Positions 11,349 to 32,968 of a stretch of DNA of 64,000 bases are shown piece by piece (position 1 is the stretch's first letter; the number at the start of each line of letters is the position of its first letter). Source of the DNA: Bdellovibrionales bacterium (lineage in GTDB: Bacteria; Bdellovibrionota; Bdellovibrionia; Bdellovibrionales; JAUICD01); NCBI GenBank assembly GCA_965203275.1, contig OZ241865.1, positions 224,001 through 288,000 on the forward strand, given 5' to 3'. The notes beneath the pieces are model-generated. The model had not been told where the DNA came from and ran no database searches. It saw nothing but the letters and a program-made list of their open reading frames with translations. The position numbers were made by a program, and so were the translations under genes.

Positions 11349-14343
11349 TTATTTGATTTGTTGAGATTTTATAAATTCAAACCAAGCTTTTTTGCTTAAA
11401 TCTGGTTTAAAATTATTTTCACTATTTTTTGAAAGTTGCTGGAGCATCAATAAGCCTTTAAGGGCAATATGATAAGCTCCATTAGCATCTGCATTTTGAG
11501 GCATAGAATGATCTTTTAATTTGCTTGAATGAAAAAAGTGACCTCGATGATCTTTGACTGGTGATATCATCCAATCTTCATCTGTGTTAACTCTGCTATT
11601 ACGCATTTGCAAAGTCAATTTAAATAATCTCATAAGCTCCTTAAAAAACTCTCTTTTATCTTGTTTTGTGATAGCCTCAATTAAACATTCTTCATCTTTA
11701 AACTCAATAGAATACTTTTTAAACAGCTCTATTATTTCTTGAGTTATATCCACTTTACGAGTATCCCATTGATTGTTCTTTTTGCTATCTCTAAAACTTT
11801 CTAGTCGGATGCCGTGACTGCATATCATCCATTTTTGTTGTAAGCCCTCTACTTTTTTGTTAAAGCTTTCATAATTTATATGAAATTCAAAATAATTTTC
11901 AGAAGGATGGAGACAAATCTGATCAAATTGACTGAAAAACTCTTTTGCTTTTCTTATAGTTTCATATCTTGGATAGAGTAAATTGATAAATCCTGTGGCA
12001 GGGCAAACTTTAGAGGTGTAATAAGAAGGAACATAAAAAATGAACCCTGTTTGTTTGCCCATTTTTTGAAAACTCTCAAACTTTTCAGTTAATTGTAAAG
12101 GTTTGAATAAACCTCCTAAGTCATGTGGCTCTTTATCCTTATCCTTAAAAATTAAGTAATGAAGTTTATCTATTAACATTTTTTCTAGCTTTTGATAAAC
12201 TTGTTTTTCTACTTTAAAGCGACCTCTTTTAAATCCAAAATTCAAATCTTCAAAGACTACAATGGCATTATGTTTAACCATTAGTTTTGTAATTTTATGT
12301 ACTACTTGAGAGAGATAACCTGTTTTAAGGTCTTTGATCTTTTCAATAGTATCCCAAGATTTTCTTGCCTGATCTCTTTCTTTTTCTCTGTTGTCTAAAA
12401 GTTTTTGGTAGTCTCTACCTTGATTCAAAGGCTCATTTAAACTATCTTGTTTCAAGATATTGCCTTTCTGGTCTATGACTGTGTAATAGGCTAGATGCCT
12501 TTCGCCTCTATCAATACCAATAATTTTCACATTATTTATATGTTTCTTAAGAGCTTGGTTGACTTTGTCATTAAATTTATTGACTTTTGACGCTTTAAAA
12601 TTACATTCAATAGGTACGTGAAAGAAATATTGATTTTTTGTAAATCTTTTATCTTTGATAATATCATAATCAAATATATTTTTTTTGCTCTTATTTTTTT
12701 TGCTTTGAATAAATTGGCCTTTAAGGTGAGTAATTTTTTTTGCATTTGAAATAGAAGCTTTTCTATAGAACAGCTCTGCCTTGCCACTGAGTTTATAGAT
12801 CACATCTTTAAGATTATCTTCATCAAACAAAGCTTTCCAATACATAGTATGAAGGTTCGGCTTACCTTTGTTGGATTTTTTCTTTTGAGAAAAATCCTTA
12901 TTATAAATTTGGAATAAATAAAGCTTACCTTCTCGAACACACTGATCAATATAGCTTTTGGATATATCTTGAAAAGTGATTTTATACCCTTGATGTTCTA
13001 CTTCACGATAAAAGTCATTTATTTCTTTATAATGTGTTGTTGGATTAAACTTAAAATCAAATTGCTTCCAGTCAGGGTGTTTTGCAATGGAATTTTTATA
13101 AAAATCAATCATCTTATACATATCTTGAAGATCAAAATCTTTCTTCTCAAAACCATTTTGAGTCTCTCCATTTTTGGTATGACTTGCATGATTTCTTATA
13201 GCTAAAATTTCTTCAGAAGGTGAGTAATTATTAATATTTTTCTGACTAAAAAAAACTTTTGGCAACATTTTACTGGCACCGGGTAATAACTTATAAATCA
13301 TTTTTTCATAATGTTCACCATTATTTGGCACATCACTATTTTCAAATAATTTCTTATGTTTTTTATCCATTATTCCAAGAAAATACTGGCTGTCTTTTTT
13401 AAATAATACACAGAAATTATCTTTTTCTTTATTTTGATCCCAACCATCTGCCAATATAGGATTTTCAAAATTTAGTTTATATTTTTCTATACTGTAAGGT
13501 TTTTTGGTGAGATAATTGCGAGTTTGATTAAAAAGTGGAACAACAGCATTTATAGACTTAAATAAAACATCAAAGTCACTGTAAAATAAGCCATCCTTTT
13601 CAAAAATATCTTTTTGATCTTTATCATTCCCTCTAATCTGAATAGATAAGGGTTTTAAAAAATGGTATAAGTCCATTAAGGACTCAAGATATTGTTTGAT
13701 AATATTTTTAGCTTTCTGATCATTTTTTAGTTTTTCATCCTTAGCATTTTTATATTTTTCTAATACTTTAATAGCTTTGGATTTTGCATCTTGTATATTT
13801 TCAAGTAGCCCAACTTTTTCAAATAAATTGCTTTCTTCATTTTTCTTTTTAATAGTGAGGGATTCAAAATATTTACAAAGAGGCTTATTAATAGCAATTT
13901 CTTTTTGTTCTTTTGTTGTTTTCCCTTGATCATCTTGATCTTCTTCTTTTAGTACTTCTTGATTTAATTCTTTATCTTTATACTGTTCAAAATATAACTC
14001 CAAAGCTTTATGAATATCATCAAAACTTAAATAAGATTGCTTTAGCCATTTTTCTCTATCTTTTAAAAGTTTTTGAGTTTCTTTTTTACCTTTTAGTAAA
14101 GGGTATACTTTTTCTGCAACATAATATTCAAGGCAACGTTGAATTACATTCCACTCACCAAAAAGATATTGTGATATATCTGTGATAGCCCGGTCATTTT
14201 TGATATAGAGTTTTTTAGGATCAGCTTCTTTTAATACCTTTAAAGATTCTATTAAATTTAGACTTTCTGTGATATTGTTTTCATTCTGATTGATCATTGT
14301 ATTGATTTGTAAATTCTTTGAATATTGAATCTGGGTTTTTCAT
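11349..14343 (-). pseudogene. cas12a: cas12a (cpf1) split by an internal deletion/frameshift: mini-ORF 14343-14281 (MKNPDSIFKEFTNQY...) plus 982-aa ORF 14297-11349
   Basis: NQTRNYLTKKPYS, KLNFENP.LADGWD.NKE, YKLLPGASKMLPKVFF, GKLYLFQIYNKDFS, IIGIDRGERHL, VFEDLN.GFKRGR, NADANGAYHIALKG; ORF starts inside REC2. Confidence 0.9.
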
Positions 14344-14505
14344 AATAGATAATCCTTTCATTTATTGTGTATTATGAGCTGTATTTAATTATGCATTGCA
14401 TAATTAAATGCAGTGCAATTGACCAAAGGCAAAACCAAGATGCTGACAATACTATCGTATCAAATGAAGATATAATACTTGCCTTCTGTTTATTGATACT
14501 TTTTT

Positions 14506-14533
14506 TTATCGGTATAAATGCTATTTAACTTAA
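14506..14533 (-). promoter_or_regulatory. sigma28/FliA-like promoter facing cas12a
   Basis: Minus strand TTAAG-N15-ACCGATAA. Confidence 0.5.
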
Positions 14534-14665
14534 GCATCTAAAGTATTTTATGAACCAAAAAATATAAAAACAGTTAAATCGTCTCAATTTGAATCAATCA
14601 TTTGATAAAAGTGTTTCAAAATGTATCAGTTATTTAATAATTAATAATATTTTTTATTTTTATGC

Positions 14666-14692
14666 TTTAGCTAAAATTTAATCTACCGATAA
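14666..14692 (+). promoter_or_regulatory. sigma28/FliA-like promoter facing the Cas12a2/a3-like gene
   Basis: TTTAG-N14-ACCGATAA. Confidence 0.5.
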
Positions 14693-14801
14693 GTTTATAT
14701 GTTCTTACAAAATCAATTTTTTCATCAAAGCATACATATTTTTAAAACTATATTTTAATAAATTTTTAAATTTAATTCATTATTTCAAAAAAGGAGAAAT
14801 T

Positions 14802-17800
14802 ATGTCCCACTCTACCAATAATAATAAAACAAACTTTGACAATCCATATCAATACACAAGAGCTATTCGCTTTAAATTAGAACCTCAAAAACAAAGTAAA
14901 TGCTTTTTGAAAAAAATAAAGCAGAACAATCAAGAAGAAATTAATCTTAAAGATTTATCAAATCTTTTGCTAGAAATATATGAAAGTTTACATCAATTGA
15001 TCTATGTAGATAGTAAAAAAGAAGAAAAGAACGATCAAGATTCCAAAGATAAGAGTAAAAAATATAGCAAAAAAATATCTATCAATAAAACATGGCTTAA
15101 AACTTGGCACAAAGAACAATTCTACTATTTAATCAAAGAAAGCAACAACAGGCAAGGTAAATATGCTCTTAAAGATTTAAAACCTATACACTATTTAAAT
15201 CAATGGTTTCAAAACTGGGGAGAATTAAGCAAGCAGTTTAAAAATCTGTCTCAAAAGCCATTAGAAGATCAGGCTCGAAAAAGTGAAATAGCTCATATCA
15301 TTAGGAGTTTACTGAATATAAAGAATTTACCTTATATTATGGATTTTCTTAAAGAACTTCATACTAAAAATACACAGCTAGATGAAAAAGTTAAAAAGCT
15401 TAAAGAAAATTTAGAGAAGGCACAGAAAGACCTCAGAAATGCAGAAAAAGAATATTTATCTAGCAGTGCAGAAGGTATTGAAATAGCCAAAGCTAGCTTT
15501 AACTATTACACTGTTAATAAAAAATCAAAAGAAGACTATAGTAGAGAATTGGAAGAATTGAAAAAAAAGAAAAAAGAAAATCATTTTTCAAATATTGAAG
15601 AAGGTAAAAATAACACTTTTTTAATAAAGTTAGATGCAAACCATTTTTTAAATAAAAAGCTTAAGGATATAGAATCAGATCAAAAAATAAAAAAACAAGC
15701 AGAAATATTCACATTTAAAAGTGAACAAGAAAAAGAATGGCTTAAAAGATATTGTGCTGAGTATAAGCTTGGAGATATAACTAAAGACACCTGTCATCTT
15801 TCCTTAGATAGAACGTATGATTTGATGAAATCTTTTAAAGCAGAACAAAAATCTATTTTTTATGAAGTGATGGCTCATATTGCAAGTGATGAAAAGAAAG
15901 GGAGTAGTTACACAGTCAAAAATAAAAATCTTAAAGATTATGAATTGAGTTATAAACATCTTAATCAAGAAAGTATCAATAAAACATTTTCTTTATTCCA
16001 ATTTAATGACAACCATAAAAATTTACATTATAGAAATAGATCAGTAGAAAAATATAATGAGTTTGTGAAGCTAACTAAAGACATTCAAAAAGAAGGCAAA
16101 GCAAAAGAAAGAGGAAAATGGCTTTTTTGTTCAAATAAAAATCATCGTTTTTATTTTACAGAATATGGTGAATTTTGTGATTACTACAAAAAAATAGCAC
16201 AGGACAGAGGTAAACTCATTGCTCAAATCAAAGGCATTGAAAAAGAAAGAGATGAAGCTGTGCAGACAGAGTATTGGAGTTTAATTTATATAAAAGCTCA
16301 TCAAAAGCAACTTTGGTTGATACCTAAAAGCAAGATGCAAGATGCTAAAAAAAATATTAATCGTCTTCAAGATAGGCAAAGTAATTCACTTCAAAAAGAT
16401 AACTTTTGTATTTTTGAATCTTTAACTATGAGAGCCTTACATAAACTGTGTTTTGCTGAAGAAAGCACTTTTGTAAGAGATATGCCAGAAGATTTACAGA
16501 ATCTTCAAAAACAAGCTAAAGAAATCAAAACTGATGGAGATAAACAAAAGGTCAAAGAAAAAGATCAGAAAAAACTTGAATATCTCAAAGAAGTATTAAA
16601 GTCAGATTACGCTAAAGACAAACTACAATTGGAAAACTTCAATCTAAAAGAAGTTAATAAAGCGGAAACCTTGCAAGAATTTGAAAAAGCTTTAGAAAAA
16701 AACTGCTACTATGTTGTTCAAAAAACATTTGCTAATAAAGAAGATAAAGAGGATTTCATTAAAAAGTTTGATGTCATTGTGTTAAATTTAACTTCTTATG
16801 ACTTAGAAAAACGAAACAAAAATACTCATCAAAACCCTCACATTGAAACTGAAAATAAATATCATACTGATTTATGGCAAGCCTTTTGGAGTAATTTTTG
16901 GAATAAAGAGATAAATGTAAAAAAAATTAATGTGGGTGAAGTACGTTTAAACCCTGAAGTTAAAATCAGGTATCGGAGTATCGATAAAGATTTAGAAAAA
17001 TACCTTAAAGAAAGAGGTTTTTCTGATCAATTTAAGCATCGTAGGAAGCAGGAGCAAATCACAGTTAATTTCACTTTAGCACTTAATGCAGGTAAGAGAT
17101 ATGAAGAACTTGCTTTTACAAAACCTGAAGAAATAAGAGAGAAAATCGATAACTTCAATCAAAACTTTAATAATGAGCATGATTTTAAAACAGCTTGGAA
17201 ATATGGCATTGATCGAGGACAAATTGAACTGGCTACTTTATGCCTTGTCAAATTTGATCCTGATAAAGACATGTACCAAGTCAATGGTAAAAGCATAGCT
17301 CAGCCTACTTTTCAACAAAAAATTAAGTGTTATACCTTAAAAGACTACAATCATTCAAAGCCTTATGATGATGGTAAGGAAAGAAAAGAAACTGATCGTA
17401 AGGCTATTAAGAATCTCTCTTATTTTCTTGATAAAAATAAAGAACCCAATAAAGATATTTTTGAGTCTCATTCTGTCTCTTGCTTAGATTTGACCACAGC
17501 TAAGGTGATCAAAGGTAAAATTTTCACCAATGGTGATGTGATGACTTACTTGAAACTCAAGAAAGCATCAGCTAAACGCCAGCTTTATGAAATTTATGCT
17601 CAAAGCAAAATAAATGCAAGTGTAACATTGGAATGGAGTGAATACAAAGATGGTAAAGAAAAAGAACATCATCCTGAAGGTGTTTTGAATATAAAGTATG
17701 GTGAAAAAGAAATAAAAACTATTTATGAATATTCCACAAAATATAAAGATGTTCTATCTAAGGAACAAATTAAAACAGATCTCAATCGCTATCTTGAGGA

Positions 17801-18779
17801 ACTATTTAAAAATAAGACAAGTCATACACCTGAAATTTTACAAATCAATCATTTAAGAGATGCCATCACTGCCAATATGGTAGGTGTGATCTGTCACTTA
17901 CAGAAAACATATCCTGGCTTTGTGATTTTAGAAGATCTCGATCCAGGAAAAGTCAATCGTGTATCAGATGGTTTTCAAGATGATGAAAATATTGCCCGCA
18001 GATTAGAGAATGCTCTTTATAATAAGTTTCAAGCTTTGGGTTCAGTTCCGCCTCATGTTAAAGACATTATTCAACTGAGAGAAGATGTCAGAGATGAACA
18101 ACAGAAATGTGCAGTAAATATAAATACAATTGAAGACAATATAAAGAAAGTTAAAGAAGAACTCAATAAGTTAAATGAAAAAACGCCTCAAAATATTATT
18201 GATAAATACAAAAGAGAATTAAAAGTTTTAGAAGACCAGAAAAGTCAATATAATAAAAATTTTGTCAAGTCTTCACAAATAGGAGTGATTGTTTTTGTGG
18301 ACGAAAAAAATACAAGTCAAAACTGCCCTTACTGTGAAAAAGGACAGCCAGCATCAGAAAAAAACAAAAAAAAGAAATTCCAAGAAAAACAGTTTGTTTG
18401 CCAATTATGTGGTTTTAATACTCAAAATCTTAATAAAGAACATATTTTAAAAGACATCAATGACCCTGATAAAGTAGCGGCTTATAACATTGCTAAAAAG
18501 CTAAAAACCTCTAATGAGATTGGTAAAATGGAGCCACTTCAGTCTCAAAACACTGAAGGTAAAAATGTACACAGTTATCAAAATAAAAATCATCGGACTA
18601 AACAAAAGCATGATAACTCAAAAAAAGGTGAAGCCTTCAACAAACAAAAGCACAATCTACAAAAAATCCATCCACTACAGAGCAATCAAAGGCAGGCAAA
18701 TTCAAAGCAACTAAAACATCAACCCTTTAAAGATTTAAAAAAGATGATCAGTGAAGAAAATGAAAGGCCCCATCCTTAA
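14802..18779 (+). CDS. Type V effector of the Cas12a2/Cms1 group (Smithella-Cms1/Cas12a3-like), 1325 aa
   Basis: RBS AAGGAG; TRAIRFKLEP; AKASFNYYTVNKK; RGKLIAQIKGIE; RLNPE; RuvC YGIDRG (D804), ILEDL (E1044), NDPDKVAAYNIA (D1223); Zn ribbon CPYC..CQLC; linked V-A-type array. Confidence 0.88.
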   Translation: MSHSTNNNKTNFDNPYQYTRAIRFKLEPQKQSKCFLKKIKQNNQEEINLKDLSNLLLEIYESLHQLIYVDSKKEEKNDQDSKDKSKKYSKKISINKTWLKTWHKEQFYYLIKESNNRQGKYALKDLKPIHYLNQWFQNWGELSKQFKNLSQKPLEDQARKSEIAHIIRSLLNIKNLPYIMDFLKELHTKNTQLDEKVKKLKENLEKAQKDLRNAEKEYLSSSAEGIEIAKASFNYYTVNKKSKEDYSRELEELKKKKKENHFSNIEEGKNNTFLIKLDANHFLNKKLKDIESDQKIKKQAEIFTFKSEQEKEWLKRYCAEYKLGDITKDTCHLSLDRTYDLMKSFKAEQKSIFYEVMAHIASDEKKGSSYTVKNKNLKDYELSYKHLNQESINKTFSLFQFNDNHKNLHYRNRSVEKYNEFVKLTKDIQKEGKAKERGKWLFCSNKNHRFYFTEYGEFCDYYKKIAQDRGKLIAQIKGIEKERDEAVQTEYWSLIYIKAHQKQLWLIPKSKMQDAKKNINRLQDRQSNSLQKDNFCIFESLTMRALHKLCFAEESTFVRDMPEDLQNLQKQAKEIKTDGDKQKVKEKDQKKLEYLKEVLKSDYAKDKLQLENFNLKEVNKAETLQEFEKALEKNCYYVVQKTFANKEDKEDFIKKFDVIVLNLTSYDLEKRNKNTHQNPHIETENKYHTDLWQAFWSNFWNKEINVKKINVGEVRLNPEVKIRYRSIDKDLEKYLKERGFSDQFKHRRKQEQITVNFTLALNAGKRYEELAFTKPEEIREKIDNFNQNFNNEHDFKTAWKYGIDRGQIELATLCLVKFDPDKDMYQVNGKSIAQPTFQQKIKCYTLKDYNHSKPYDDGKERKETDRKAIKNLSYFLDKNKEPNKDIFESHSVSCLDLTTAKVIKGKIFTNGDVMTYLKLKKASAKRQLYEIYAQSKINASVTLEWSEYKDGKEKEHHPEGVLNIKYGEKEIKTIYEYSTKYKDVLSKEQIKTDLNRYLEELFKNKTSHTPEILQINHLRDAITANMVGVICHLQKTYPGFVILEDLDPGKVNRVSDGFQDDENIARRLENALYNKFQALGSVPPHVKDIIQLREDVRDEQQKCAVNINTIEDNIKKVKEELNKLNEKTPQNIIDKYKRELKVLEDQKSQYNKNFVKSSQIGVIVFVDEKNTSQNCPYCEKGQPASEKNKKKKFQEKQFVCQLCGFNTQNLNKEHILKDINDPDKVAAYNIAKKLKTSNEIGKMEPLQSQNTEGKNVHSYQNKNHRTKQKHDNSKKGEAFNKQKHNLQKIHPLQSNQRQANSKQLKHQPFKDLKKMISEENERPHP

Positions 18780-18863: not shown

Positions 18864-19038
18864 GTGGTCATTGCCCAAGGTGTAAGAAAGAAATTTTTCC
18901 TTAACATTGTGTTAAAAAACGAGAGGATCCTTCCTACTCAAAGTGAACAGGCTTTCTAGGTTGCCAGCTTTTGAGAAGGCGAAAGCCTTCAGCTGGCAAC
19001 CAGAAAGTGACCAGAGGTCAGTTCACTTTGAGTGAACC
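18864..19038 (+). repeat. Family-A repeat, full copy ~18899-19037
   Basis: Complete nested stem set seen directly. Confidence 0.85.
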
Positions 19039-19041
19039 AAA

Positions 19042-19200
19042 TTATATGTTGTTGTCAAAAGAAGCTTCATTAAGAGTCCTATATTCCTAGTGTACATAAG
19101 TTTGATGTATTTATCAATAATGCATATCAAATATGAAAAATCAGACTTGACGCATTAAAATAGCTGTTTTCAACCTGTGCATTTTGTTCAACCTATATCT
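19042..19200 (-). pseudogene. Remnant paralog of the Bdr-like gene: last codons joined directly to its upstream promoter region
   Basis: 19055-19080 matches 8935-8960; 19083-19200 resembles 9600-9725. Confidence 0.7.
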
Positions 19201-19402: not shown

Positions 19403-19642
19403 ATGGAATCTTATGTCTCTATATCTTTTTTGAATGATTTTATTTTTTGTCCTCGCTCTATTTACTTTCATCAAATTTATGGTAGGCAAGAGCAAATCTC
19501 TTACCAAGATATTCCACAAATTGCAGGCAAAGTAGCCCATCAAACTATTGATTCCAAATCTTATAGCACTCGCAAAAACATCCTGCAAGGCATTCCTGTT
19601 TATTCTTCAAAATACCAAATATATTGCCACACATATTATTAA
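19403..19642 (+). pseudogene. cas4: cas4 N-terminal half (V-A PREFRAN type), truncated
   Basis: ISFLNDFIFCPRSIYFH..AGKVAH; lacks the nuclease motif and C-terminal cysteines. Confidence 0.85.
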
Positions 19643-20285
19643 AAATAAAATAGAAAATCAAAACCACTTACTAAGAAAAGTTCGCAACAAAGATCATTCG
19701 ATTAGGCAAAGTATTGAAAGGCTTGATATTTTCAAAGAAAATCTTAATTCACGTCAATTAACACTGAAAGAAATTTTAGGATTTGAAGGTATTGCTTCTA
19801 AAGAATATTTTAAAATTTTGTTTAGAGATTGCAACTGGATTGTGCGAAGACCAAGAGTGAAACATGATCCTATCAACTCTTTGCAAGATACGGGTTATAC
19901 AATGCTTTTTAATTTTATTGAAGGTTTATTGGGGCTTTATGGTTTTGATGTTTATAAAGGAGTGTATCATCAGTGTTTTTATCAGAGGAAGTCCCTCGTG
20001 TGTGATTTAATAGAACCTTTTAGACCTATTGTGGATGCTCGCATTAAGAAAGCGTATGGACTTGGACAAATCAAAAAAGAAGACTTTATAGAGGTCAATA
20101 AACAATATCGTCTTTTTGGAAAGAAAAGCCAACCTTATATTGCGTGGCTTTTAAAAGCTATTTTGAAACATAAAAATCCTATGTTCTTTTATGTGCAACA
20201 ATATTATAGATGCTTTATGCAAGAGAAGCTTATAAAAGATTATCCAATTTTTCTTTTGTCACAGCAAGAGGAGGATAAATGTTGA
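19548..20285 (+). pseudogene. cas1: cas1 lacking its N-terminal part; Cas1 similarity starts at ~19620
   Basis: IATHIIKNKIENQ, GFEGIASKEYF, RRPRVKHDPIN, GYTMLF, GVYH, SLVCDLIEPFRP. Confidence 0.85.
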
Positions 20286-20554
20286 TTGTGGCTTATGATA
20301 TTAGCGAGGATAAATTAAGAGGAAAGCTAGCTAAGTTTTTGTGCAAATTTGGCTATCGTTTACAATATTCTGTTTTTCAAATCAGGAACAGTGAAAGAAT
20401 GTTAAATAATTTAATATCAGAGATAGAAGGTTCTTTTGTTAAACATTTTACACAATCTGATAGTGTGATTATTTTTTCTTTGAGTCGAACTTGTAAGGTG
20501 ATTAAGTTTGGTTATGCTCAAAATGATGATGAGGATTTAATCTTTGTAGCTTAA
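20279..20554 (+). CDS. cas2: CRISPR-associated Cas2
   Basis: MLIVAYDISEDKLR...FGYRLQYSVF; RBS GAGGAGG. Confidence 0.95.
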   Translation: MLIVAYDISEDKLRGKLAKFLCKFGYRLQYSVFQIRNSERMLNNLISEIEGSFVKHFTQSDSVIIFSLSRTCKVIKFGYAQNDDEDLIFVA

Positions 20555-21286: not shown

Positions 21287-21693
21287 ATTGAAAGGGACTT
21301 ATAAATTTCTACTGTTGTAGATCTTAAAGGATATATTGATGGTCGCTTCTATTGAAAGGGACTTATAAATTTCTACTGTTGTAGATTGAAGATTTTGATT
21401 TAAAAGCTATAAATTGAAAGGGACTTATAAATTTCTACTGTTGTAGATACAAGCCCTGCAAATCTTACTTTATTATTGAAAGGGACTTATAAATTTCTAC
21501 TGTTGTAGATGTTAATGTTGGCTTTGCTCCACAGTTTATTGAAAGGGACTTATAAATTTCTACTGTTGTAGATCCGGTGTTATTGCCTCAAGGGCTGTAT
21601 ATTGAAAGGGACTTATAAATTTCTACTGTTGTAGATAGATATTCTTTTGCATCAATTCTATCATTGAAAGGGACTTATAAATTTCTACTGTTG
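21287..21693 (+). CRISPR. Type V-A array: 6 identical 36-nt repeats ATTGAAAGGGACTTATAAATTTCTACTGTTGTAGAT, a 31-nt truncated terminal repeat, and 6 spacers of 26-28 nt
   Basis: Repeats start at 21287, 21351, 21413, 21475, 21538, 21601, 21663; 3' 19 nt is the canonical Cas12a handle AATTTCTACTGTTGTAGAT. Confidence 0.98.
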
Positions 21694-21698
21694 ATTCA

Positions 21699-21975
21699 TT
21701 TTCACTAAAAATAAACCAGCCTCTGGCTGTTTTTGGGCAATCAGCCCGACGGCTCTCGCCGTCGATCAAAGGCTGATTGCCTCAAAAATCCGTTTATTTT
21801 TAGTAGGAAGAATCCTCTTGTCTCTTTACAAGATGTTATGGAAACAAGATGTTTATTTCACTTTGATATTTTGCCATTGACAAAATGGTCATTGCCTCAA
21901 AAAATTATGCATTTTGAGTAGAGGAGGATCTCTTCGTCTCTTGAATACATGTTAAGGAAAAAAGGTTTCCTTAAC
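21699..21975 (-). repeat. Family-A repeat cluster abutting the terminal CRISPR repeat
   Basis: ttcactaaaaataaaccagcctctgg...cgacggctctcgccgtcg... Confidence 0.85.
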
Positions 21976-22033
21976 AGGTCCGCCTGCTCTTAAGGATCTA
22001 AAAACAATCGGATCGTAATGCATTTGTTAGGTG

Positions 22034-22064
22034 ATTGAAAGGGACTTATAAATTTCTACTGTTG
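22034..22064 (+). CRISPR. Orphan copy of the truncated terminal repeat
   Basis: 22034-22077 is identical to 21663-21706 (44 nt). Confidence 0.9.
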
Positions 22065-22107
22065 ATTCATTTTCACTCAAGTTGATGATGATGGTCGGAC
22101 GGCTTTA

Positions 22108-24165
22108 ATGTATGCAAGCCAGAATGGTCATATAGATATTGTAAGGCTTTTAATAGAACAAGATGCTGACGTAAATTATCAAGATAATAATGGAAATACT
22201 CCGGTATCACTGGCCAGGGAAAATGGACATAATGACATTGTAAGAGTTTTGAATGATGCCGGTCCAACTCCGACACCATCTCCAAGTCCAACCCCGGCCC
22301 CGAGTCCAGTTCCAACACCAACTCCAAGTCCAACCCCGGCCCCGAGTCCACTTCCAACACCGAGTCCATCTCCAAGCCCAACACCGAGTCCAACTCCAAG
22401 CCCAACTCCGACACCAGTTCCAACTCCGAGTCCAACTCCTACTCCAAGCCCGACACCAACTCCAAGCCCAACACCGACACCAAATCCTAGTCCAACACCA
22501 GGTCGAACCCCGGCATCATCGATACGCATACCGGATATGGTCGGTCGTATCATAGACAACTGTTGGACAAATCTAAATTTCAATGCCTGTATTTATAGTG
22601 TATCAGGTTCTTTTAACTATGCTGTTAATATAAGAGATAATATAGGCAGTTATCTTGAAAATAGTCATTATAAAATAAAGCCCGCTTATACGTTTTCAGA
22701 TGGAACAACAATGGAACGGGCTACATTAAGAAATGGAAAATGGAGAACTGCCATTCCTTCTTTGTCAACGTTAAGAAATGATTATATAACTGTTAATAAT
22801 GTAAGGGCATATCAACCTATGGTTTATTATTGGTTAATGTATCAAAGAGAATGGATGAAACTAAATGCCGGTGGATGGCATGCAGATAATAAAGGTATAA
22901 TTGTAGAAAGTCCAGGGAACAAAGAAGGTCCCTGTCGTAACTGGGGAGGATGCTGGTCACCGTCAGACAAAACAATAGTCTTAAATGAATCTTACTCTTT
23001 AGAAGTGGATATTATAGCTCACGAAGCAGGTCATGCAAATCTTACTTACGCTAGAGGACAAAGGGCAGGATTCATTCGATCTAAAGACAGTCGTTTTTTT
23101 ATGCGTTGTGGAAGTTTTTTAGGTTGCTTTGCTGCTATTAATGAAGGGCAGGCTGATTTTCATGTATACATGGCTTTTACAGGCGTTTTATCAAATGGAG
23201 ATTTTATATCATGTGACGATGAAATAGCTGTGTCCAGGAGTCCAAAGAACAATAACACCACTGCATCTACCATGTTCCAGGAGAGCAAAGGACAAATACA
23301 CTGCATGGGCGTTGTCTACAATTCTATATGGTATGAAGTTTATACACACCCACAAACAGATCAAGTAAGGATTGCTCAACTATTTCATAATCACTTACCT
23401 TTATTGACTTATTCTGATGATTTTGCTGATGCTGGTTTTAAGATATTAAATCTTTCAAGACAAATGGAATTTTCAAATCAAGTATATCAAATCATTGGTG
23501 ATGCTTTTGTTAAGAGGGGCTTAATGAGAAAGTCTGGCAATATATATATCAAAAATAGCAATACAGCTTTAATTGGTGCAAGTCGGGATGGGCATATTGA
23601 GATGGTAAAAATTTTGATAGCGGAAGGGGTGGACGTCAATCTTCAAGACAAATTTGGCTACACAGCTTTAATGTCGGCTAGTTATAGCGGCCATATAGAG
23701 ATTGTAAAGCTTTTTCTAGTGGCCGGAGCTAACGTCAATGATCAAGAAAAATATGGCTTTACGGCTTTAATGTGGGCAAGCGAATACGGCCATATAGAAG
23801 TTATAAGATTATTGCTAGAGGCCGGAGCTAACGTCAATTTTCGAGTAGAGGCCGGAGACAACACCCGTCTTCAAACAATAAATGGCTATACGGCTTTAAT
23901 GTTGGCAATCGCTAACAGCTATACTGATATTGTAAAGCTATTGCTAGCGGCCGGGGCCAACGTTAATATTCAAGATCAATCCGATTACACGGCTTTAATG
24001 ATGGCAGTTGCTTATAATCAAATTGAGACTGTAAAGTTATTGATAGTGGCCGGAGCGGACGTCAATCTTCAAGGCAATGATGGCTATACGGCTTTAATGA
24101 TTGCTAGAAACCAGGGCCAAAAAGAAATTGTAAGACTATTAAAAGAGGCCGGAGCTACAAAATAA
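22108..24165 (+). CDS. Ankyrin repeats, Pro/Thr/Ser linker, M4/M36-like Zn metalloprotease, ankyrin repeats; probably 5'-truncated
   Basis: G.TALM.A repeats; AHEAGH...NEGQADF; ankyrin motif DGRTAL continues upstream of the ATG to an in-frame stop at 22063. Confidence 0.8.
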
Positions 24166-32006: not shown

Positions 32007-32390
32007 TTATTCACCAAAAAGGTTTGAAAATGCAACCCTACTAAATAAAAAAGAGTTTAAAGATAAGCCCCCTAAAAGGGCTATAAATTCAAACCTGTCA
32101 AAAATAGATATATCACAAAGTAACTTAAATAAACCCTGACAAAAAACTATGGCCAAAACAAAATAAAACCAAACTTGAATAAGAACAAAAACTTTTTGAG
32201 CATATTCTTTTTTATGTTCTCTTTCAGACTGAGAGACTGCGATCTGCTCTTGTACCACCTTATTTAATATTACCTCTTTACTTGATTCGTTTTGCTGGTT
32301 TAGTAGTGTTTGTTTAGACTGTTTCTCACTTGGCTGACTGTCTGTTTGATATTCTTTAGATAGTTTTGGAAGCTTGTCTATAGATGTCAT
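32007..32390 (-). CDS. Two-TM membrane protein coupled to the Panacea gene (candidate toxin)
   Basis: ATGA overlap; C-terminal hydrophobic helices. Confidence 0.6.
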   Translation of the reverse strand: MTSIDKLPKLSKEYQTDSQPSEKQSKQTLLNQQNESSKEVILNKVVQEQIAVSQSEREHKKEYAQKVFVLIQVWFYFVLAIVFCQGLFKLLCDISIFDRFEFIALLGGLSLNSFLFSRVAFSNLFGE

Positions 32391-32968
32391 TGATCTGTCT
32401 TATCCTCTAAAAATTGCAAATAATATTCCTTTATGATCTCATTATCAATAGACTTACCTTGAATACCATTGCTTTCTTTTATTGTTAGAAACCATGGACT
32501 CCCCTCTATGTGAGTCCGTCCTGATAAATCCCATGCAGGTAGCTTGCCATAATCTCTTAAAACAACATCCATTATCTTTTTTTCGTCTTCACTAAAATAA
32601 GCTCGACGTTCTCTTAATCCCTTATTTGTGTCGTCGAGTTCTTTGGCTTTGTTTTCTTTTTTAATAACTGGAAAAATTTTAAAAGCATGGTAAATAGATT
32701 GAAAGACCGGTCCATATCTCCAAGCAAGAGCATATTCATTAACTAATGGCTTACCTATCAAAGCTAATTTAAAGCCATGAGCGATATAAACAAGCTTGAT
32801 CAATTTTAAGCATGTAAGCTCTTCCCTACCATTATTTTTGAAGTTGTCTATAAAATAATTGGCTACGGCTAAAGGGTCATGGCCTTCTGTGTTTTCAGTC
32901 ATATTGATCATTCCTCCTGATATTTTGAATATATCTTTTAATATATCTTTTAAAATCAAATGCGACAA
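32387..32968 (-). CDS. Panacea/SocA-like (DUF4065) antitoxin; likely start ATG 32902 after AGGAGG
   Basis: AVANYF, LKLIKLVYIAHG, AWRYGPV, LS..TH...SPW, IDNEII.EYY. Confidence 0.85.
   Translation of the reverse strand: MSHLILKDILKDIFKISGGMINMTENTEGHDPLAVANYFIDNFKNNGREELTCLKLIKLVYIAHGFKLALIGKPLVNEYALAWRYGPVFQSIYHAFKIFPVIKKENKAKELDDTNKGLRERRAYFSEDEKKIMDVVLRDYGKLPAWDLSGRTHIEGSPWFLTIKESNGIQGKSIDNEIIKEYYLQFLEDKTDQ

Follow-up and report, generated by a model that had tools for sequence, protein, structure and literature searches.

A Cas12a3-type nuclease of the BdCas12a3-like branch in a decaying type V-A locus of a Bdellovibrionales bacterium

What does a CRISPR locus retain when only one of its large effector genes is still whole, and what would the product of that gene cut? 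The question is raised by a stretch of 64,000 nucleotides (nt) from a Bdellovibrionales bacterium (assembly GCA_965203275.1, contig OZ241865.1, positions 224,001 to 288,000), hereafter called the window, in which a type V-A locus carries a gene for a protein of 1325 amino acids (aa). A preliminary description, made from the sequence alone, had taken this protein for an intact, divergent nuclease resembling Cas12a2 or Cas12a3. Our analysis kept the second part of that assignment and not the first: three trees, the predicted folds and a search of the PDB place the protein in Cas12a3, on a branch shared with BdCas12a3, and not in Cas12a2. The reading favored here, to which we give a probability of about 0.6, is that of a BdCas12a3-like Cas12a3 effector triggered by RNA through CRISPR RNA (crRNA) from the array, whose trans cleavage of RNA most probably falls on tRNA 3' CCA tails. 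The gene and its motifs are the following.

14802..18779, + strand: cas12a3-type effector gene, 1325 aa, 157 kDa, isoelectric point (pI) 9.3; its product is the query of all searches, P0001
14792..14796, + strand: ribosome-binding site AGGAG, ending 5 bases upstream of the ATG, read directly
17202..17219, + strand: RuvC-I motif YGIDRG, residues 801-806, with catalytic D804, a column invariant in a 50-sequence alignment (A1)
17925..17939, + strand: RuvC-II motif ILEDL, residues 1042-1046, with catalytic E1044, invariant in A1
18324..18410, + strand: zinc ribbon of two cysteine pairs, CPYC 1175-1178 to CQLC 1200-1203
18459..18485, + strand: RuvC-III motif NDPDKVAAY, residues 1220-1228, with catalytic D1223, invariant in A1

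Both the list of open reading frames and the translation show a frame that starts with ATG and is free of stops over 1325 codons. At the base composition of the window the probability of such a frame is about 9e-44, which excludes a chance origin. The gene has a G+C content of 29% and is present as a single copy in the genome. Since its N-terminus, NPYQYTRAIRF, agrees with the consensus start of 49 relatives, the start codon can be regarded as correct. The RuvC triad and the zinc ribbon were found where the preliminary description, which also noted a ribosome-binding site, had placed them. Of 120 aligned relatives, 114, with the query among them, retain all seven catalytic and zinc columns, and the query keeps every invariant column of A1.

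Profile searches gave little by way of a name. The sole Pfam match of the protein is a sub-threshold Cas12f TNB zinc ribbon (PF07282, residues 1162-1206); the scan found none of the Cas12a PI, NUC, REC2 and RuvC_1 domains, the preliminary description having noted no canonical PI or Nuc motifs, and no NCBIfam model, TIGR04330 included, matched. Two PADLOC models named 'Cas12a', PDLC01230 and PDLC01232, match the query end to end (E 1e-171 and 1e-163), which means only that these two models cover it.

Sequence comparison with solved structures was more informative. A phmmer search against all PDB chains returned BaCas12a3 (21we, E 1.2e-71) and Ba1Cas12a3 (9hlx, E 2e-58) as the best matches and no other real ones; no Cas12a2 chain was matched at E <= 1. 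In a large protein search 8000 candidates were scored; 137 of them proved to be relatives at E <= 0.001, and 120 of these were listed. Among the 120 listed, P0002, encoded on another contig, is near-identical to the query; at least 60 are 39-55% identical to it and 1118-1736 aa long; further ones, of about 1150-1200 aa, share 34-40%, and a last group about 27-33%. Three of the proteins at hand (P0101, P0072 and that of locus L027) were considered as the solved Ba1Cas12a3 or BaCas12a3 and ruled out, as they were not identical (E 2.5e-53 to 5e-74). The query had been described as larger than its relatives. This is so in comparison with the solved enzymes (1160-1184 aa) and not so within its subclade, where 60 proteins have a median length of 1286 aa and range from 1118 to 1736.

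The closest named relative is BdCas12a3 (P0033), with 45% identity over 93% of the query. The description of Cas12a3 dates only from 2026 (Dmytrenko et al., PMC12851939), with three orthologues studied, and the high novelty implied at first does not hold, since BdCas12a3 already stands in the published table of that family. The family is thus known, and the BdCas12a3-like branch is already listed in its founding paper.

Trees were built with sequences from the 37 related loci of a scan of one genome per species and the 37 loci of a metagenome scan. Loci were assigned to entries of Supplementary Table 1 of PMC12851939: L003 is BdCas12a3, L025 Sm3Cas12a3 and the metagenome locus L091 ca20Cas12a3, and three are Cas12a2, namely L030 (ca6Cas12a2), L031 (Ba3Cas12a2) and L036 (MDD4848569.1). 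The query is 21-24% identical to the proteins of the Cas12a2 loci and 33% identical to that of locus L024 from Smithella sp. SCADC. Cms1 is an older name that covers today's Cas12a2 and Cas12a3. Smithella sp. SCADC is given as the source strain of SmCms1 in the 2017 Cms1 preprint (Begemann et al.).

The Cas12a fragment of the window served as outgroup in all three trees. The largest, a FastTree of 136 rows, comprised this fragment, 113 listed proteins of at least 1000 aa and 22 open reading frames of the loci; seven shorter proteins and locus frames below 1000 aa were excluded, and the sequences of the solved Ba1Cas12a3 and BaCas12a3 were not among the rows. In this tree the query and BdCas12a3 share a 61-row clade (support 100), which is sister to a 36-row clade; the resulting 97 rows are sister to a 29-row clade containing Sm3Cas12a3 and the SmCms1 locus. 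The whole Cas12a3 side (127 rows, support 99) lies apart from an 8-row clade (support 100) with the three named Cas12a2. A quick IQ-TREE run (LG+G4, 51 rows) placed the query in an 18-row clade with support 100 inside a 45-row clade with support 99, and gave the Cas12a2 clade 100; a 60-row FastTree that included metagenome loci, among them ca20Cas12a3, placed the query in the same way. The root, which lies between two long branches, is uncertain, a point on which the placement of the query on the Cas12a3 side does not depend. The query thus groups away from canonical Cas12a, with named Cas12a3 members and the SmCms1 locus, and the resemblance to Smithella-type Cms1 named in the preliminary description stands: the blocks AKASFNYYT, RGKL...QIKGIE, KAIKNLSYFL and DLTTAKVI are present, HMMER aligns these same blocks to the solved Cas12a3, and both the SmCms1 source locus and Sm3Cas12a3 belong to the same large clade as the query. 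None of the Cas12a4 contigs of Supplementary Table 1 (PMC12851939) occurs among the 37 genome and 37 metagenome loci; that the query is distinct from Cas12a4 is suggested indirectly, by its position between two named Cas12a3 members.

Predicted folds led to the same placement, both halves of the protein matching solved Cas12a3 best. Two AlphaFold2 models were made from alignments of 82-83 relatives, one of residues 700-1240 (mean predicted local distance difference test score, pLDDT, 89.5) and one of residues 1-715 (pLDDT 84.5). With the former, covering the NUC lobe, Foldseek found Cas12a3 at E 6e-20 to 1e-16, Cas12a2 at 4e-10 to 5e-5 and Cas12a at 1e-2 or above; the corresponding VIA scores were Z 27.5 for Ba1Cas12a3 (377 residues aligned, 29% identity), Z 25.0 for Cas12a2 (327 aligned, 22% identity) and Z about 17 for Cas12a. 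With the N-terminal model, VIA gave Z 22.6 for BaCas12a3 (583 aligned, 26% identity), 21.7 for Ba1Cas12a3, at most 13.0 for Cas12a2 (12% identity) and about 11 for Cas12a. In these models the N-terminal half discriminates more sharply between Cas12a3 and Cas12a2 than the NUC lobe, where Cas12a2 comes close, and the whole protein is built like Cas12a3, with REC and NUC lobes. Ba1Cas12a3 (9hlx/9hm4/9hm6) and BaCas12a3 (21we/21wj) share the order of domains and the catalytic residues with the query; they differ in being 140-165 residues shorter and in having a loading (NL) domain of about 106 aa. Cas12a2 (SuCas12a2 and others), an RNA-targeting relative, resembles the query in that a zinc ribbon replaces Nuc, and differs in its separate clade and in the far weaker match of its REC lobe. 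According to PMC12851939, Cas12a2 shreds DNA by means of an aromatic clamp that Cas12a3 lacks.

What the enzyme would do can be proposed from its studied relatives. The protein would bind a crRNA with the 19-nt handle AAUUUCUACUGUUGUAGAU, derived from the adjacent V-A array, and the guide would pair with a complementary transcript bearing a purine-rich 3' flank. Pairing would change the shape of the protein and open its single RuvC site D804/E1044/D1223; RNA, most probably tRNA 3' CCA tails, would then be cut in trans, and the loss of the tails would halt translation and growth of the infected cell, its DNA remaining uncut. Use of the adjacent array is plausible in view of the shared locus and the canonical handle. 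RNA triggering, trans cleavage of RNA and a preference for tRNA are inferred for the query from homology: in Ba1, Sm3 and ca23 Cas12a3 it is RNA that activates the enzyme, which then shortens the 3' tails of tRNAs, and Cas12a3 is reported to cause growth arrest without an SOS response and to defend against T4 (PMC12851939). The BaCas12a3 preprint agrees with RNA-triggered cleavage of tRNA tails.

Several points weigh against this proposal. BdCas12a3 has an entry in Supplementary Table 1 of PMC12851939, a paper whose main text mentions it 0 times, and the Cas12a3 assayed to date lie outside the BdCas12a3-like branch. Ba1 and Sm3 differ in cleavage sites and in substrate rules (PMC12851939); specificity is thus not uniform across the clade. 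Decay is visible in the locus itself, where cas12a is truncated and a deletion has joined cas4 to cas1. That the frame is open proves little about function, since the truncated cas12a is open too, over 982 codons. In the 2017 Cms1 preprint SmCms1 gave indels in rice, suggesting DNA damage. Finally, the part of the protein that would be expected to hold the tRNA tail is much reduced, as described below.

The rice experiment bears on whether the query could be a DNA-targeting, DNA-cutting editor like Cas12a, as was first claimed for Cms1 proteins. We regard this as highly improbable. The indels were reported at TTTN-flanked sites, and the handle in the window does not differ from the one used by DNA-cutting Cas12a enzymes. 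The neighboring Cas12a/Cpf1 (11349-14297) has the same crRNA handle and array and a RuvC fold, and both genes co-occur in most related loci. However, TIGR04330 and the Pfam PI, NUC and RuvC_1 domains match this neighbor and not the query, which also groups away from Cas12a in the trees and has its lowest fold scores with it. The three studied Cas12a3 cut RNA and not DNA, with no SOS response (PMC12851939), and the authors of the Cms1 preprint themselves detected no nuclease activity in vitro.

The reduced region is the following.

17628..17729, + strand: three-strand beta meander (residues 943-976) at the place of the Ba1Cas12a3 tRNA-loading domain, from phmmer gaps and the model

In Ba1Cas12a3 this domain spans residues 855-960 (about 106 aa); the terminal A of the tRNA is stacked between R902 and N924, Y922 adjoins the two C of the tail, and activity is strongly lowered by deletion of the domain or by mutation of R902 or N924 (PMC12851939). 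When residues 860-1060 of the query were taken alone, HMMER aligned them with Ba1 799-847 and 959-1039. Ba1 848-958 lies opposite 44 query residues, and BaCas12a3 894-972 opposite 14; R902, Y922 and N924 are therefore without counterpart. The query model has a helix (913-933) and three strands (943-948, 956-966 and 970-976), with no further helices before RuvC-II. The BaCas12a3 preprint describes the NL domain as three strands and four helices, and credits it as an extra domain to 'several' Cas12a3 members only. The strand core is thus kept in the query, and the part of the loading domain that contacts CCA has no counterpart.

This condition is not peculiar to the query. From the DLTTAKVI block to the RuvC-II glutamate there are 147 residues in the query and 136 in Sm3Cas12a3, and of the 117 aligned relatives with this segment, 113 have a spacing of 132-179. 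The short form without a Ba1-type loading domain is thus the rule among relatives, the domain not being clade-wide. Four proteins with long insertion domains (P0020, P0062, P0034 and P0060) were considered as Ba1-like and rejected, their inserts being unrelated; that of P0062 is acidic, and that of P0020 is a tandem duplication of a helix plus three-strand module which replaces the tRNA-loading domain. Sm3Cas12a3 is colinear with the query through the short insertion domain (NUC-lobe identity 32%) and is reported to trim tRNA tails, with cleavage sites that are a little displaced and a tighter dependence on CCA (PMC12851939). Since Sm3Cas12a3 has the same short form and yet trims these tails, tail cutting by the query is plausible, although it would not be readable from the solved structure.

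Two further modules lie near the active site.

18090..18275, + strand: helical-hairpin insertion between RuvC-II and the zinc ribbon, 62 residues (1097-1158)
18504..18776, + strand: basic C-terminal tail rich in K, N and Q, 91 residues (1235-1325), pI 10.05, outside both models

The hairpin is modelled with high confidence. It is missing in P0002 and in Sm3Cas12a3, and is present in about 40 of the 120 listed relatives, as judged from segment length. The basic tail is common to the query and its closest relatives. P0001 and P0002 are almost identical from about residue 150 to 1099; between residues 1097 and 1215 they differ both by 50 residues of helical hairpin and in the zinc-ribbon segment, where CQLC of P0001 stands against a C-x4-C pair and 19 extra residues in P0002. 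Such a pattern suggests an exchange of cassettes between alleles by recombination.

These features favor another explanation, in which the protein, though an RNA-activated member of the Cas12a3 clade, would cut another or a wider trans substrate, either single-stranded RNA in general, as reported for Cas12a4, or other structured RNA. It is possible, though somewhat unlikely in our estimate. It would follow from the missing CCA-binding subdomain of Ba1 type, cut down to a three-strand remnant in a family where the NL domain is credited to some members only (BaCas12a3 preprint), and from the extra modules. The 62-residue hairpin and 91-residue tail are accompanied by a distance of 179 residues between E1044 and D1223, as against 105 in Ba1Cas12a3 (E1032-D1137) and 104 in BaCas12a3 (E1052-D1156). 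The tail trimming reported for the equally short Sm3Cas12a3 speaks against it, as does a gene found behind a Cas12a3 of the sister branch. Directly downstream of P0062 and on the same strand, locus L010 encodes (13943-16018, +) a protein of 692 aa that carries TPR repeats in its C-terminal part and whose N-terminus resembles DUF3800 weakly (E 0.0022, which misses the Pfam cut-off). A DUF3800-TPR architecture is described for Adt1, a protein that cleaved aminoacyl-tRNA tails activate, and the L010 protein is a candidate auxiliary gene of Adt1 type; no solved relative of it was found at E <= 0.01. This neighbor lends weak support to the idea that cleaved tRNA tails are made in this part of the tree. 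A Pfam scan of 35 window frames, each at least 150 aa long apart from cas2 and the cas4 remnant, showed no Adt1.

Tail cutting by a BdCas12a3-like Cas12a3 remains our preferred reading. BdCas12a3 (uncultured Bdellovibrionales, Ga0325881_105 / JACOND010000005.1) shares with the query the 61-row clade, the short insertion domain and a locus of the type cas12a, cas12a3, cas4, cas1, cas2. It differs in its length (1214-1218 aa versus 1325), in lacking the helical hairpin (81 residues in the equivalent of E1044-C1175 versus 132) and the long tail (17 residues after the equivalent of D1223 versus 103), and in its locus, where cas12a stands in tandem and cas1 is matched. The query shares its RuvC triad, zinc ribbon and V-A handle with Sm3Cas12a3 (Smithella sp. 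M82) and with SmCms1, both of which belong to the same large clade, but to a different major branch (29 rows versus the 97 of the query), with neither hairpin nor basic tail; on the published account, Sm3Cas12a3 is the nearest relative of the query with shown RNA-triggered cleavage of tRNA tails. The branch of the query is large, with at least 60 proteins at 39-55% identity, many of them in Bdellovibrionales-like genomes, and keeps the catalytic core without the domain that holds the tRNA tail in the solved enzyme. It bears on whether tail cutting is family-wide or limited to some branches, a question of interest both for how immunity of this form works and for the use of such enzymes as orthogonal RNA-detection reagents.

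The state of the surrounding locus, and with it the possibility that the gene is a relic, can be assessed from the following features.

11349..14339, - strand: cas12a remnant, with a 982-aa open frame at 11349-14297; about 330 N-terminal residues are gone and homology fades at 14339
19403..19642, + strand: cas4 remnant of 79 codons, the first 73 corresponding to the N-terminal end of cas4 in related loci, where it measures 187-199 aa
19548..20285, + strand: cas1 remnant, about 100 N-terminal residues gone, covering positions 103-316 of a 317-position type V Cas1 model
20279..20554, + strand: cas2, 91 aa, apparently whole
21287..21698, + strand: V-A CRISPR array with 36-nt repeats, six and all identical, ending AATTTCTACTGTTGTAGAT; its six spacers measure 26-28 nt, and one terminal repeat is truncated at its 3' end
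22034..22069, + strand: second copy of the truncated terminal repeat, parted from the array by two inserted structured repeats

The cas12a frame covers positions 327-1287 of the 1288-position TIGR04330 model (1030 bits), with matches to all four Cas12a Pfam domains. Three full-length Cas12a of related loci match the genome from their residue 326-351 onward and nowhere else. About 1 kb of the 5' end of cas12a has thus been lost, the remaining 982 codons being still open, and the locus indeed has no full-length effector besides the 1325-aa protein. The usual order, found in 14 of the 37 loci of the genome scan, is a cas12a frame that stops immediately upstream of the cas12a3-type gene, both on one strand, with cas4, cas1 and cas2 downstream of the latter; in the window, cas12a stands head-to-head with cas12a3, inverted with respect to this tandem order. 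The first 73 codons of the cas4 remnant match the gene in cas4 position in 27 loci, and the cas1 remnant continues straight on from it. It appears that one deletion took away about 110 codons of cas4, its C-terminal part, together with the first 100 or so codons of cas1 and left the two remnants abutting. The adaptation side of the locus is dead. The repeat of the array folds into the canonical 5-bp handle stem; arrays in five related genomes have 9 to 59 repeats, as against six spacers here. Copies of an abundant structured repeat of about 145 nt lie at 18930-19050, between cas12a3 and the cas4 remnant, and at 21700-21990, after the array, where the truncated terminal repeat and about 15 nt are duplicated on either side of the insert (21664-21709 and 22036-22080). 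The locus is a case in which the RNA-sensing partner has survived, with the DNA-cutting Cas12a and the spacer-acquisition genes lost.

Could the surviving gene then be a still-open relic of a vanishing locus, unexpressed or no longer useful for defense? The inverted and truncated cas12a, the fused cas4 and cas1, the few spacers and the structured repeats inserted on either side of the adaptation genes all fit such a view. So does the loss of the usual upstream partner by inversion, and a promoter scan of positions 14200-14900 upstream of the gene found 7 sites, against 6.3 in shuffled sequence. Nevertheless, we consider a relic quite unlikely: 1325 codons have stayed open at 29% G+C behind a strong ribosome-binding site with all invariant A1 columns kept, a near-identical protein exists on another contig, and the genome has retained 13 further handle-bearing RNA units that only Cas12a3 could bind.

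These units were found by searching the assembly, a single contig of 2.57 Mb with 35% G+C, for the 19-nt handle. With up to two mismatches it occurs 19 times, six times in the array and 13 times scattered, while the reversed control gave 0.

Contig C1, outside the window, lone handles at 363994, 437890, 960068, 1168380, 1412157, 1546813 and 1599446
Contig C1, outside the window, further lone handles at 1600241, 1744663, 1884192, 1915358, 1920928 and 2428091

The scattered handles are without the 5' part of the repeat. Most of them abut a promoter-like box, TTGAGT-17 nt-TATACT, from which transcription would begin at the handle's first base. Their variants either keep the stem through G-U pairs or are changed only in the loop or the 5' tail. 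They often lie directly behind a small membrane-anchored coiled-coil gene, and several carry a terminator hairpin. About half are followed by a unique 3' segment of 20-26 nt and the others by a common terminator module. In the five related genomes nearly all handles are inside arrays, with no such scattered units; one apparently lone handle in a genome of the same genus (G001) was dismissed, being part of an array repeat into which a repeat element has inserted and not a unit driven by a promoter. Cas12a3 is the one intact enzyme here to which the lone-handle RNAs could bind. Part of the interest of the locus lies in this survival of the RNA-sensing gene alone, in a decaying dual-nuclease locus of a genome with many lone guide-like RNA genes. 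One may conjecture that the branch, without the CCA-binding subdomain of Ba1 and with a hairpin and basic tail of its own, has a trans substrate other than tRNA tails, and that the enzyme, its adaptation genes and Cas12a being broken, no longer serves adaptive immunity here and is kept as a fixed-guide sensor or regulator, fed by at least 13 chromosomal single-guide genes with promoters and not by the shrinking array, a combination we hold to be rather doubtful. In the 22 nt after the lone handles, unique guides have genomic sites at chance level only (3-4 mismatches), and the non-unique ones match copies of the common terminator module.

Of the array itself, spacers 2-6 have no other genomic site at three or fewer mismatches, the 20-nt core of spacer 1 has 0 exact matches in viral contigs, and the whole array gave only handle matches and chance-level matches among 50,697 phage records. 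A single 24-nt match to the V-A handle in unannotated DNA of Leptospira phages of the LE1 group (KF114879.1, KF114880.1 and KX656785.1) is possibly a solitary viral repeat unit. The genome also has a type II-B system (C1:2266380-2278445) with a 1476-aa Cas9/Csx12, cas4, a cas1 split into two frames and an array of 24 repeats with a 38-nt repeat. Its third spacer is identical to V-A spacer 1 at 26 of 28 positions, and therefore both systems remember the same invader.

Beyond the locus, the window encodes an ankyrin-repeat protein of 685 aa, which contains a Pro/Thr-rich region of tandem repeats and starts immediately behind the array remnant (22108-24165, + strand), and, 10 kb further on, a protein with a SocA/Panacea antitoxin domain (32387-32968, - strand).

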